NCBI GenBank assembly: GCA_963635575.1
Contig: CAVHFU010000003.1
Location: 3,539-67,538 of the forward strand
From: a bacterium
GTDB lineage: Bacteria > Bacillota > Clostridia > TANB77 > RGIG9151
Length of the DNA stretch: 64,000 bases
Reading direction: 5' to 3'
Shown here piece after piece: positions 21,774-44,497 of the stretch; positions within the stretch are counted from its first letter, which is position 1; the number at the start of each line of letters is the position of its first letter. The position numbers were made by a program, and so were the translations under genes. Below the pieces are notes generated by a model, which did not search any database, had not been told where the DNA came from, and saw nothing but the letters and a program-made list of their open reading frames with translations.

Positions 21774-22097
21774 TTAGGCTATTGTTAAAATCCCCATAAA
21801 CCCAGTTATTTCAAACACTTCTTTTAGTGTTTTACTTGCATTAGTTATAACCATTTGCCCCTGCAGTGCATTGATTTTTTTCTGTGTAGCGAGTAACACT
21901 CTAAGTCCTGCCGAACTTAAATATGTAATTCCCGCCATATCAAGTTCTAAATTCTTAACTTCCTCACTAACTAATAAATTTGTAATAGTTGTTTCTAACT
22001 CAGGTGCTGTGTTTGTATCAAGTTTTCCCGTAAGTTCTAAAACAATACCGTCTTCATTATTTTTCTTTACAATTTCCATAAAAGTCATCCCTTCCAT
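21774..22097 (-). CDS. STAS-domain anti-sigma-factor antagonist (SpoIIAA/RsbV-like)
   Basis: 107 aa; LTGKLDTNTAPELE...LDMAGITYLSSAGLRVLL, phosphorylatable Ser in SSAG context. Confidence 0.8.
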   Translation of the reverse strand: MEGMTFMEIVKKNNEDGIVLELTGKLDTNTAPELETTITNLLVSEEVKNLELDMAGITYLSSAGLRVLLATQKKINALQGQMVITNASKTLKEVFEITGFMGILTIA

Positions 22098-22100
22098 ATA

Positions 22101-22724
22101 TTAAGTCAAAATAAATGACAATAAATTAACAGACATATGTCCTATACTAGACGCAAAAATATTTTCATACTTTCGCATAAAGTATCCGTAAAGCATTGCA
22201 GATAGAAATGCAATAACTGCCCAAATAATGTTTCCATGCATAATTCCAAACAAAATTGCCTGTAATATTATCGCAATATGTATATTAAAGCACTTTGCTA
22301 ACTCACCTAATATAAGTCCTCTAAATAAAATCTCTTCAGTAAATGGTGCTATGACAACAACAGTAATAAAGCCAATCAAGCTTTTTATTCCTTTAAGTTC
22401 TGCATCCATTTCTATCATCAATTCACTTCTCATCGATTGCGGAAATAGTAACTGAACAGACTGAAAAGCTAAATTTAATGCTAATGAGATAATAATAACA
22501 ATACCTATTGTTTTTAGCCCTATTTTATTAATTTTCAGTCTATCTTTAATATTTTGTTTTGCGACTTTTATAAGTAGTAATACCAATAGTCCAAACATTA
22601 TATCGGCAATTAACGTACTTAGTAAATTATCACTCGGAATTATACTACTGCATATAGCCTGGCAAATTCCCATAATTGCTATATACGTAAAGCATTTTAG
22701 TATTGCTAATATTATTTTTTTCAA
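22101..22724 (-). CDS. CPBP-family (CAAX/Abi) intramembrane metalloprotease
   Basis: FTEEILFRGLI (EExxxR), FGIMHG (HxxxN/H) motifs, multi-TM. Confidence 0.8.
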   Translation of the reverse strand: MKKIILAILKCFTYIAIMGICQAICSSIIPSDNLLSTLIADIMFGLLVLLLIKVAKQNIKDRLKINKIGLKTIGIVIIISLALNLAFQSVQLLFPQSMRSELMIEMDAELKGIKSLIGFITVVVIAPFTEEILFRGLILGELAKCFNIHIAIILQAILFGIMHGNIIWAVIAFLSAMLYGYFMRKYENIFASSIGHMSVNLLSFILT

Positions 22725-23515
22725 TTTACTTCATCCTCTTCTTGTGTAGGATAAAAATATTCATTTATCACGTTATTTATTTCTGCCAACAACTCGTCAT
22801 TTCCTTTTGAAACAAGTGCTACATACTCAAGGAATTTTCCATCCGAAAGTGTGTTAATTTCAAGTGTATCAGAATTTTCAGCCAACATCTTTTCCGCCTC
22901 ATTTTTATAGCAAATTACTGCATCAATATTATATAAAAGCAATTGTTCTATTGCAGTATCTAAGCTTTTATATTGCTTAATAGTTGAAGCCACATTTGAT
23001 ACATCAGTTTTTACTAAACTAGCTATTGGTGTTCCTGTAATAAGTGCCACTTTTTTATCGGATAAATCGTGTATACTAAATACATCTACGCCTTTATTAG
23101 TAATTACATATGGTACTTCTTTTGCAAAGATAAGTGATTGATTAACCTTAAACTTATCACTTTCGTTTTTCTCAATCTTACCGAATGCAACGTCTACATT
23201 TCCGTCTAAGAGAAGACCTGTTACTTCTTCTCTTGACGTTTTTATAAGATTAACTTTAACTCCGTTTCTCTTTACAAATTCACCTATTAACTGTTCTTCT
23301 TGATGATAAATTTTATCATTTTCCTTATCTTTCTCGTTTTGTTCTGAGTTAGTATCCTTTGTCATAAAAGGATACTCATCAGTAGAAAAAGCAATATTTA
23401 TCGTTCCATCACCTTGAATTTCTTTTAATGTTCTATAGCTAACTTCCTCTTTTCCACAGCCTGTAAACATCAAAGGTATTAAAAGTACCGGCAATATTTT
23501 AGCAATTCTTTTCAT
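22721..23515 (-). CDS. Lipoprotein, periplasmic substrate-binding-protein fold (SBP_bac_3-like)
   Basis: Lipobox LMFTGC G; ...DGNVDVAFG..., ...IDAVICY... pattern of type-3 SBPs; no cognate ABC permease/ATPase adjacent. Confidence 0.6.
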   Translation of the reverse strand: MKRIAKILPVLLIPLMFTGCGKEEVSYRTLKEIQGDGTINIAFSTDEYPFMTKDTNSEQNEKDKENDKIYHQEEQLIGEFVKRNGVKVNLIKTSREEVTGLLLDGNVDVAFGKIEKNESDKFKVNQSLIFAKEVPYVITNKGVDVFSIHDLSDKKVALITGTPIASLVKTDVSNVASTIKQYKSLDTAIEQLLLYNIDAVICYKNEAEKMLAENSDTLEINTLSDGKFLEYVALVSKGNDELLAEINNVINEYFYPTQEEDEVN

Positions 23516-42879: not shown

Positions 42880-42894
42880 TTAAACTCTTCCTCC

Positions 42895-43350
42895 TTATCT
42901 AATTTTCTTTCTTATAATCAAAACATTTTTGCTGTCTTCATATTTATACTCAATATCATCCAAAAACTTCTTTGTCATGAAAATTCCCAAGCCACCAATC
43001 TCTCTCTCATCTATCCCCTTAGATATATCCGGGTCAATTCGCCCAAGTGGATTGTAAGGTTTTCCCATATCTTTAAATTCAACTTCAATCATAAAAATAT
43101 CCTCTTTTATGTTACAATTTATCTCCACCTCACCCTGTTCATCATATGCATAGCTTGAAATATTCACAAATATTTCTTCAACGGCAATATCTAACTTAGT
43201 TTTTAATTCATTGGTATAAGGCAATTTCATCAATTCTCCATTGACAAATTCAATTACTTTATCTAAATTCGTTTTGCTTGCTTCAATAGTCAAATTAGAC
43301 ATATTCCTGCCTCCTTTAGCTCCTTCTAAACATAAGCATTGTAATATCAT
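42895..43350 (-). CDS. Anti-sigma factor / partner-switching Ser kinase (RsbW/SpoIIAB-like HATPase)
   Basis: 151 aa; N-box EEIFVNISSYAY, G-box GGLGIFMTKK. Confidence 0.8.
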   Translation of the reverse strand: MILQCLCLEGAKGGRNMSNLTIEASKTNLDKVIEFVNGELMKLPYTNELKTKLDIAVEEIFVNISSYAYDEQGEVEINCNIKEDIFMIEVEFKDMGKPYNPLGRIDPDISKGIDEREIGGLGIFMTKKFLDDIEYKYEDSKNVLIIRKKIR

Positions 43351-44497
43351 CTGACTGTTCTATGCCAAAACTATGTTTATCAATTTCAGTGTGCACATCT
43401 GTCAAAATATCTCTGACCGCCATTTTATTATATGCTTTAGTTTCAAATAATCCTAGTAACCTTTCATCAGAAAACAGATCATCATTTTTATCTTGTGCCT
43501 CTGTGACCCCATCTGTGTACATAAAAATCATGTCGCCTTTGCCAAGTTGCATTGTGCTTTCCTTGTATTTAATGTTTTCCATACCTGCAAGAACGAATCC
43601 GGGCTTTGCTTGAATGAACTCAGCACTGGTTCCTTCTTTCAAAATAATCGGCAAATTATGACCCGCGTTTACATATCTAAATTCTCCGGTCTCGATATTT
43701 AAAATCCCCATAAAAGATGTAACAAACATATTGGCATCATTGTTTTCACACAATTCATTATTTGCATGTTCAAACACCTCATTTACCGAAATATTTAGCT
43801 TAGCGTAATTTTTAATTACCGTTTTTGCCATAAGCATAAATAACGCAGCAGATATTCCCTTCCCAGATACGTCAGCTATAAGCATACAAATATGTTTATC
43901 GTCCACTTTAAATATATCATAGAAATCGCCGCCAACCTCTTTTGCAGGAGTCATCGTAGCACATATTTCTATTCCTAAATTGTCAAATTTCTTAGGTAAT
44001 GAACTTTCTTGAATTTTTTTAGCAATATCAAGCTCTGACTTTAATCTCTGCTGTTCAGAAATAACATTAGTCAAGTTTGCATACAATGTCTCCATAAAAA
44101 CCGCATAACAATCCGGATTCTTTTTTACAACATCATTAAATAAAGTTCTAGAAATCCTTACAGCTTGAAGTGGTTCATCCGCTCTTACTGTAGCCGAACG
44201 CTTTTTGCCGGAAATAAGAGCCATCTCGCCAACAAACCCACCACTTTTCATTTTTCCGATTATTTTATTACTGCTACTTAGCACGGTTGCACTTCCGCTT
44301 ATGATTATATACATTCCGTCTTCAGCTTCGGCACCGTATGTAACTATATTCTCATCTTTATTAAACTTACAATATTCAAGCAGTCTAATTAGTTCCATTG
44401 CTCCATTAGAAATTTTAGAAACATCCGCTATTCCAAAAAATTTCTGCACAGAAACATTATTTATTAAATCATTAAATTCCATATTCTCACCTTTCAT
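43316..44497 (-). CDS. Cyclic-nucleotide-binding domain + PP2C (SpoIIE/RsbU-type) phosphatase
   Basis: cNMP domain (FVGEMALISGKKRSATVRADEP) then PP2C (DVSGKGISAALFM, FMYTDGVTE). Confidence 0.85.
   Translation of the reverse strand: MKGENMEFNDLINNVSVQKFFGIADVSKISNGAMELIRLLEYCKFNKDENIVTYGAEAEDGMYIIISGSATVLSSSNKIIGKMKSGGFVGEMALISGKKRSATVRADEPLQAVRISRTLFNDVVKKNPDCYAVFMETLYANLTNVISEQQRLKSELDIAKKIQESSLPKKFDNLGIEICATMTPAKEVGGDFYDIFKVDDKHICMLIADVSGKGISAALFMLMAKTVIKNYAKLNISVNEVFEHANNELCENNDANMFVTSFMGILNIETGEFRYVNAGHNLPIILKEGTSAEFIQAKPGFVLAGMENIKYKESTMQLGKGDMIFMYTDGVTEAQDKNDDLFSDERLLGLFETKAYNKMAVRDILTDVHTEIDKHSFGIEQSDDITMLMFRRS

Follow-up and report, generated by a model that had tools for sequence, protein, structure and literature searches.

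Partner-switch genes, an extracytoplasmic function sigma factor and three predicted promoters in a type IV secretion-like gene cluster of Clostridia

The DNA analyzed here, a 64-kb stretch of a Clostridia genome (contig CAVHFU010000003.1; the whole stretch is called the window below, and all coordinates refer to it), carries between positions 21774 and 44525 a cluster of genes for a machine resembling a type IV secretion system (T4SS), among which the genes of a partner-switching phosphorylation system and of a sigma factor are scattered. The window is AT-rich (~32% G+C) and its genes lie nearly all on the minus strand, as do the cluster and all of its sites. From 5' to 3' on that strand, the Pfam and NCBIfam domain calls give a DUF3307 protein, a PP2C phosphatase, a kinase, a protein with SLH domains and NHL repeats, a FecR-domain protein, a cyclase with a CHASE2 domain, a 580-residue protein (K580), the sigma factor, a small protein (s73), the coupling ATPase VirD4, a pilin-like protein, a 362-residue membrane protein (T362), three paralogous membrane proteins, the ATPase VirB4, an SBP_bac_3-like lipoprotein, a CAAX protease and a STAS protein. 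The flanks hold housekeeping genes, glgA and recG on one side and rmuC and ppdK on the other. The closest public contig (L011) belongs to an uncultured Clostridia genome from a Hadza gut sample and has a 99% identical VirB4. The switch genes, the sigma gene with its neighbors, and the sites of transcription control are as follows.

43316 to 44482, minus strand: cyclic nucleotide (cNMP)-binding PP2C phosphatase of the SpoIIE type, 388 residues (Pfam cNMP_binding and SpoIIE, 3.2e-47)
42895 to 43302, minus strand: RsbW-like serine kinase, candidate anti-sigma factor, 135 residues (HATPase_c_2, 67.5 bits)
21774 to 22097, minus strand: single-domain STAS antagonist, last gene of the T4SS operon (PF01740, 1.2e-19; TIGR00377 above cut-off)
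35898 to 36389, minus strand: extracytoplasmic function (ECF)-type sigma factor, ~163 residues (Pfam regions 2 and 4; TIGR02937, 105 bits against a cut-off of 42.9)
35639 to 35848, minus strand: s73, small charged protein of 73 residues, candidate anti-sigma factor, next to the sigma gene in the window's lineage and in L018 and L042
36545 to 38287, minus strand: K580, 580 residues, atypical kinase resembling type II phosphatidylinositol 4-kinases (PI4-kinases) and CtkA, effector candidate (invariant DRHxxN and GIDND..FG)
44500 to 44525, minus strand: P1, predicted ECF-type promoter ahead of the PP2C-kinase-NHL-FecR-cyclase operon (exact motif)
38346 to 38371, minus strand: P2, predicted ECF-type promoter ahead of K580 (exact motif)
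35874 to 35899, minus strand: P3, predicted ECF-type promoter ahead of the operon from s73 and VirD4 to STAS (exact motif; the -35 element overlaps the sigma stop codon)
36412 to 36440, minus strand: housekeeping-type promoter of the sigma gene, TTGACA-17-TATCAT (11 of 12 matches)
36498 to 36539, minus strand: intrinsic terminator after K580 (hairpin and U-tract, -20.9 kcal/mol, z = -4.2)

A first-pass annotation had placed the phosphatase, kinase, sigma and STAS genes at these positions on the minus strand, and the Pfam and NCBIfam calls agreed with it. Four start codons were moved, as is likely from promoter and ribosome-binding site positions and from gene calls in relatives: that of the phosphatase to 44482 (original open reading frame (ORF) 43316-44497), of the kinase to 43302 (42895-43350), of the sigma factor to about 36389 (35898-36464), a TTG after the ribosome-binding site GGGAAGG, and of s73 to 35848. 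The same annotation put the STAS gene 21 kb from the kinase and phosphatase genes on the same strand, and the measured distance from the kinase gene is ~20.8 kb. Its description of the STAS protein and the sigma factor as the only ones present is correct for the cluster but not for the window, which contains a second partner-switch set, namely a spoIIAA-spoIIAB-sigF-type trio at 56326-57935 and a SpoIIE gene at 3748-5964, indicating that the organism is a spore-former with a second, independent partner switch.

The switch proteins of the cluster look active, judging from the catalytic and phospho-acceptor residues that they keep. The phosphatase shows the metal-site motifs GGDFYD, ADVSGKG, YTDGV and DDIT, and in its cNMP pocket the segment GEMALISGKKRSA aligns with the GE...RSA motif of CRP, with the Glu and Arg invariant in 10 homologues and kept in two distant cluster types, including Lachnospiraceae-type loci; the PP2Cs of other loci have different sensor domains. 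The N, G1 and G2 boxes of the kinase have Glu, Asn, Asp and Gly residues that 31-33 of the 33 family members share, and the kinase scores below the NCBIfam equivalog cut-offs for RsbW and SpoIIAB. Ser62 of the STAS protein, the phospho-acceptor that aligns with Ser58 of SpoIIAA, is invariant in all 57 aligned sequences (motif Y[IV]SS[AV]GLR), and the protein scores 64.9 against an NCBIfam SpoIIAA cut-off of 114.75.

An input of cyclic AMP (cAMP) into this switch is plausible from the genes that lie at the same end of the cluster.

44524 to 44859, minus strand: DUF3307 protein, first gene in transcription order
41329 to 42879, minus strand: SLH and NHL-repeat surface protein (Pfam), in the window's lineage only
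40193 to 41326, minus strand: secreted FecR-domain protein (Pfam FecR), signal-peptide-like N-terminus
38378 to 40180, minus strand: CHASE2 sensor fused to a class III adenylate cyclase (Pfam CHASE2 and Guanylate_cyc, 1.1e-26)

The cyclase sequence holds FVDIRGFT, DKFIGD (Lys), DYTAIGD (Thr) and NTAARLE, residues of the adenylate type by the known motifs of class III cyclases.

Whether or not one accepts this input, the association of the switch genes with the machine extends well beyond the window. A scan of one genome per species yielded at least 440 related stretches, of which the best 80 loci were kept and annotated with profiles built from the window proteins; counts were made on the 41 loci, from other Clostridia of different families, whose flanks extended the full 10 kb both ways from VirB4. 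The STAS gene was found in 34 of the 41, the RsbW-like kinase gene in 21 and the PP2C gene in 14; nine loci had all three, and 38 had at least one. The SBP-like lipoprotein (37/41) and the CAAX protease (35/41) were also common, while a sigma factor was seen in six loci and an adenylate cyclase in none. These numbers are lower bounds, because the kinase and PP2C genes of the window's own lineage lie more than 10 kb from VirB4; weak-threshold searches revealed no hidden sigma factor, kinase or PP2C in the loci that seemed to be without them. The first-pass annotation had named homologous clusters devoid of signaling genes as one observation that would speak against its proposal; with switch parts in 38 of 41 loci, the link between switch and T4SS holds for the switch parts. 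The cyclase, FecR and NHL genes, by contrast, turned out not to be general companions of the T4SS, as all three are confined to the window's lineage in the 41-locus census. With regard to gene order, the whole arrangement recurs in close relatives, and from DUF3307 to the membrane proteins it is preserved even where K580 has fallen to 44% identity, but among distant loci the order of the switch genes is shuffled. Three distant VirB4 contexts had the STAS gene in all three and the RsbW-like kinase and PP2C genes in two, in orders that all differed, and the PP2C of Enterocloster citroniae carries a cNMP-binding domain. The cultured carriers Hungatella effluvii DSM 24995 and Enterocloster lavalensis belong to a cluster type other than that of the window, and no sigma gene was seen in the part of their loci that was covered. 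Taken together, these data support the view that the PP2C, kinase and STAS genes, scattered as they are, form a functional part of the T4SS-like cluster.

Among the switch parts, STAS is, by gene neighborhood and conservation, the one most tightly tied to the machine, because it adjoins the CAAX, VirB4 or VirD4 gene and is as conserved as the ATPases. The STAS and CAAX genes stand next to each other, in either order, in 24 of the 35 loci with both, often abutting or overlapping (for example, in L009, L021 and L041), and in some loci STAS lies next to VirB4 or VirD4 instead; it adjoins the kinase gene in only 13 cases. When compared with the L005/L013 contig, the window proteins showed identities of 93% for VirB4, 92% for VirD4, 91% for the pilin-like protein and 87% for STAS (a partial copy in L013; 90% in L012), whereas the kinase was 57% identical.

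The machine itself is of a type known from integrative and conjugative elements (ICEs) of Mollicutes and is widespread in Clostridia. Its genes, together with one further RNA feature, are listed below.

33575 to 35611, minus strand: VirD4 coupling ATPase (Pfam T4SS-DNA_transf, PF02534, 9.8e-53, 180 bits)
33191 to 33508, minus strand: T4SS pilin-like protein, Mbov_0395 family (Pfam and NCBIfam)
33111 to 33161, minus strand: conserved hairpin and T-run after the pilin gene, seen in the alignment (paired base changes in L003)
31999 to 33087, minus strand: T362, membrane protein of 362 residues, a core component present in 80 of 91 sequences
26217 to 31975, minus strand: three paralogous T4SS membrane proteins of the MMCAP2_0566/Mbov_0396 family (NCBIfam, Pfam)
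23527 to 26193, minus strand: VirB4 ATPase, Mbov_0397 family (PF19044 above cut-off; NCBIfam 582 bits, just below the cut-off of 590)
22721 to 23515, minus strand: SBP_bac_3-like lipoprotein, after VirB4 in most loci
22101 to 22724, minus strand: CAAX/Rce1-like intramembrane protease, the usual STAS neighbor

VirB4, the pilin-like protein and the three membrane proteins match the Mycoplasma ICE families Mbov_0397, Mbov_0395 and Mbov_0396/MMCAP2_0566 in NCBIfam. VirB4 has more than 1,400 homologues and is ~60% identical across Lachnospiraceae, Oscillospiraceae, Enterocloster, Hungatella and Ruminiclostridium; over the best 80 of the at least 440 related stretches, the identities are 57-99% in many families. 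The third of the tandem paralogues (737 residues) has gained a CBM6 domain, and most other loci hold two copies; beyond this CBM6, no cell-wall hydrolase domain was found with Pfam. The hairpin after the pilin gene is possibly an attenuator by which more pilin than machine protein would be made. Ahead of the same gene, at ~33525-33555, stands an AT-rich palindrome, TATAATATAATAAATTTATATTATATA, which is kept in L002, L003, L005 and L012 while its flanks vary and which could be an operator or an internal promoter.

We then turn to the transcription of the cluster. The sigma factor has regions 2 and 4 only, with region 3 absent (Pfam). The motif GAGCT-N16-CGTAT occurs exactly three times in the 64 kb, where 0.02 copies are expected, and allowing one mismatch adds none; all three copies lie on the coding strand, 15-70 nt before a start codon with a good ribosome-binding site, at P1, P2 and P3. 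Alignment of the operon-head upstream regions across relatives gave the wider consensus tTGAGCTa-N15-CGTATAtA. Counterparts of P1, P2 and P3 are found in L001-L005, and the motif is present in every relative with this sigma factor, including the G+C-richer Oscillospiraceae loci that have the same sigma-s73 pair (two exact sites in L018, five in L042); neither GAGCT-N16-CGTA nor a shared bipartite motif was found in Lachnospiraceae-type loci. We infer from this distribution that the motif is read by this sigma factor, which very probably transcribes the T4SS genes from the predicted promoters P1-P3. The first-pass statement that the sigma gene heads the T4SS genes is borne out.

Upstream of the sigma gene itself, an ECF-type site that would point to autoregulation is absent, and a housekeeping-type promoter and a terminator are found instead. 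TTGACA-17-TATCAT recurs in L002 and L003, and the L005 extract ends after TTGACA. The terminator, which the first-pass annotation had also placed between the transcription units, was missed by a simple terminator scan because its stem is AT-rich, and was found by folding and comparison: a hairpin preceding a T-run occupies this position in L002, L003 and L005 too, with stems that differ in sequence. The separate promoter and the shielding terminator suggest that the level of the sigma factor is probably steady and that its control should be post-translational, for which an anti-sigma factor would be needed.

One candidate for such a factor is s73. Its gene follows the sigma gene in two cluster types, that of the window's lineage and that of the Oscillospiraceae loci L018 and L042, and its N-terminal motif is conserved. 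An 84-residue ORF upstream of the sigma gene in L019 was considered as s73-like and rejected, as neither BLASTP nor the profile search supported it. The C-terminus of s73 resembles that of K580. A profile of the K580 tail (the last 55 residues of 19 homologues) matched only s73 otherwise among 11,402 ORFs, at E-values of 3.9e-5 to 0.012, with the next unrelated match at E = 0.15. The common motif is [RK]x[EP]VSLDEL...[VI]T.[MI], followed by a basic end, and is degenerate in distant copies of K580. T4SS substrates are generally recognised by the coupling protein through C-terminal signals. The shared tail may thus be a T4SS export signal; on this reading K580 would be a candidate effector, and s73 might be an anti-sigma factor that is exported.

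The AlphaFold2 model of K580 has a predicted local distance difference test (pLDDT) score of 85 and a disordered tail at residues 544-580. In Foldseek, the model matched type II PI4-kinases and the secreted Helicobacter pylori kinase CtkA at E-values of ~1e-3 and a probability of 1.0, with template modeling (TM) scores of 0.24-0.48 and 10-15% identity. K580 shares with these kinases the fold match, DRHxxN and a DFG-like motif, but differs in its long extra helical regions and its distinct tail. It is the fastest-evolving gene of the cluster (44% identity, against 93% for VirB4, with the L005/L013 contig), and only 49 homologues were found. Lachnospiraceae-type loci carry one to three copies of K580.

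Parts of this design are known from other systems. The Bordetella btr locus encodes the ECF sigma factor BtrS, beside it BtrA, an anti-sigma factor that is secreted, and the partner-switch proteins BtrU, BtrW and BtrV, and controls type III secretion; the last three govern secretion "by a yet unknown mechanism", and a negative regulator is not among them. The present cluster shares with it an ECF sigma factor for the secretion genes, a small regulator beside that factor and a PP2C/kinase/STAS trio within the locus, which in Bordetella the machine requires. This likeness is one of architecture, a parts list. The cluster differs from the btr locus in the machine (T4SS-like, as opposed to type III), in the host, a Gram-positive spore-former, in the predicted cAMP input through the cNMP-PP2C and the CHASE2 cyclase, and in the distribution of the switch genes over two putatively sigma-dependent operons. 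With the sigma-B (RsbU/V/W) and sigma-F (SpoIIE/AA/AB) systems of Bacillus, the cluster has in common the three protein families, whose serine, kinase and phosphatase motifs are intact, and the location of switch genes within the regulon that they may control; unlike in Bacillus, the sigma factor is of the ECF type and not of group 3, the sigma and kinase genes are in separate operons, and 21 kb separate the STAS and kinase genes. As for the T4SS of Mycoplasma and Spiroplasma ICEs, the VirB4, pilin-like and multi-pass membrane proteins match the same NCBIfam families, but the identity is 25-31%, and the present cluster is chromosomal, has housekeeping flanks, is without a relaxase or DDE transposase, and has SBP, CAAX, STAS and kinase genes added. 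Lastly, the anti-sigma factor FlgM of sigma-28 is exported through the machine that it regulates. Like FlgM, s73 is small and charged, without a membrane segment, and its gene lies beside the sigma gene, first in the machine operon, with a tail shared with a likely substrate; the two are unrelated in sequence, and both the export of s73 and its binding to the sigma factor are putative.

On these grounds we tentatively favor, at a confidence a little short of even, the reading that the stretch from 21774 to 44525 is a single regulon serving a chromosomal T4SS-like machine without a relaxase gene, and, by a small margin, that its control follows a Btr-like design, in which a cAMP-driven switch would act on the machine or on export, with an effect on the sigma factor that is indirect only and passes through s73. 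A signal at the surface would be picked up by the NHL/SLH and FecR proteins and the CHASE2 domain, and would raise cAMP; cAMP would activate the PP2C, leading to dephosphorylation of STAS at Ser62; and the unphosphorylated STAS would engage the kinase and change the activity of the machine, STAS being the conserved output beside the CAAX protease and the ATPases. s73 would hold the sigma factor and may leave the cell via the T4SS. Several points weigh on the other side. We know of no T4SS protein that binds a STAS protein. s73 has no recognisable anti-sigma domain (no Pfam match), and its export is a guess from the shared tail motif. The promoters P1-P3 are predicted, as are the interactions, and the T4SS genes could also be transcribed independently of the sigma factor, by read-through from the sigma-gene promoter. 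The absence counts are soft, because the loci were seen only within 10 kb on either side of VirB4. A stronger form of the Btr-like design, a checkpoint akin to those of flagella and of the Bordetella type III system, in which s73 as the anti-sigma factor and K580 as the effector share a disordered export tail read by VirD4, and in which the cAMP switch opens export so that the loss of s73 frees the sigma factor and locks the system on, is in our estimation unlikely.

The alternative that comes closest is the one proposed in the first-pass annotation, that the cAMP and partner-switch module gates the sigma factor and hence the T4SS. As in the sigma-B and sigma-F systems, the RsbW-like kinase would itself be the anti-sigma factor, and STAS dephosphorylated by the cAMP-activated PP2C would capture it, so that the freed sigma factor turns on P1-P3. 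Part of that proposal gained support, namely the tie of the switch to the T4SS and the transcription of the T4SS genes by the sigma factor; the kinase is a candidate holder of the sigma factor, and we regard the direct model as a strong rival, if a somewhat less likely one. A 7-kb contig without T4SS genes (L092, 2602-4268) carries a 45%-identical sigma gene followed only by a STAS and an RsbW-like gene (124 and 196 bits, respectively, against the T4SS-locus profiles), between the gene of an oligopeptide-binding protein and leuA, and this free-standing trio fits direct sequestration better than the Btr-like design. It came from a metagenome scan with the sigma alignment, which otherwise returned mostly generic ECF sigma factors on short contigs, with only L091 and L092 of use. 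In L021 and L069, the sigma gene lies within ~1 kb of the kinase gene, and all three switch genes of the window are in predicted sigma-dependent units, as in the sigB operon; the terminator and housekeeping-type promoter, which imply post-translational control, suit direct capture as well. Against it, the sigma factor is visible in only six of the 41 loci when 38 have switch parts, and it has other adjacent candidate partners. These are s73 and, in the Lachnospiraceae-type clusters L021 (282-1219) and L069 (242-1179), a pair of small paralogous membrane proteins, each with two membrane helices and a basic N-terminus, whose genes follow the sigma gene, with start and stop overlapping in the classical anti-sigma arrangement, and precede those of the kinase, a DUF1292 protein and STAS. 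The sigma relatives P0191 and P0192 (47-49% identity) are in clusters for peptide natural products, of the lanthipeptide/Nif11 type, and P0205 and P0209 are in unrelated contexts, all without switch parts, suggesting that this sigma clade is not generally linked to the switch. A paper reclassifying ECF sigma factors lists no STAS/RsbW-type control. The closest sigma relatives outside T4SS loci (L171 and L173, 47-49%; one record bears the name Candidatus Wallbacteria) head Nif11/lanthipeptide-type clusters beside a DUF7005 gene. The Bordetella kinase BtrW is not known to bind the ECF sigma factor BtrS.

The remaining explanations concern the output or the nature of the cluster. The STAS protein might control the CAAX/CPBP protease, which would process the pilin or degrade a membrane inhibitor, with the sigma factor as a separate layer. 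The protease is the commonest labeled neighbor of STAS (24 of 35 loci), with genes that abut or overlap, and membrane proteins are encoded after the sigma gene in L021 and L069; in several loci, however, STAS adjoins VirB4 or VirD4 and lacks a CAAX neighbor, and we know of no precedent. We consider this route improbable. We give slightly less credence still to a decayed or unusual conjugative element, in which the switch would time DNA transfer and the relaxase would be encoded elsewhere. VirD4 and VirB4 are hallmarks of conjugation, the nearest named families are Mycoplasma ICE proteins, and among plasmids the nearest relatives occur in Spiroplasma and Mycoplasma elements. However, no relaxase, integrase or replication domain was called in the ORFs between 13.5 and 57 kb, in a search of protein domains not extended to an origin of transfer, nor was such a gene found from 19 to 47 kb, the flanks are housekeeping genes, and the VirB4 search found no relative above 31% identity among 72,556 plasmids, as opposed to 57-99% in many bacterial families; an ICE or plasmid origin was judged unlikely. 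Finally, the neighborhood might be due to chance, the switch genes serving a different target, for instance a sigma factor of stress or sporulation. Switch genes are indeed common in this genome, as spoIIAA, spoIIAB, a sigF-type gene and spoIIE elsewhere in the window show, but that sporulation trio is complete by itself, and the presence of switch parts beside the T4SS in 38 of 41 loci, in different families and orders, brings this very improbable explanation close to refutation. Elsewhere in the window, a truncated PP2C-like ORF lies at 6145-6780, and a surface protein of 1,442 residues with SLH domains, Listeria-Bacteroides repeats and a VWA domain is encoded at 7975-12303, ~10 kb downstream of the cluster.

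Full-text searches of the literature turned up neither this cluster nor any partner switch linked to a T4SS. The first-pass claim of an undescribed mode of regulation is upheld to that extent, but an ECF sigma factor combined with a partner switch next to a secretion machine is a logic already known from Bordetella; what is new here is the machine, the phylum, the cAMP input and possibly a checkpoint based on the export tail. To our knowledge, nearly all that is known of Gram-positive type IV systems concerns conjugation, and little is understood of how they are controlled. The Btr-like design favored here would carry a scheme known from Bordetella type III secretion over to another phylum and another machine. 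The cluster belongs to a family of chromosomal T4SS-like systems without a relaxase gene, represented by at least 440 related stretches in a one-genome-per-species collection, many of them from gut Clostridia, and apparently equipped with its own phosphorylation switch. For the window's lineage, a putative signal path can be read from the sequence, leading from a surface sensor through cAMP, phosphatase and STAS to a sigma factor with three predicted promoters. These results give handles on when and why common gut commensals deploy such a machine, and name K580 as a candidate secreted kinase.

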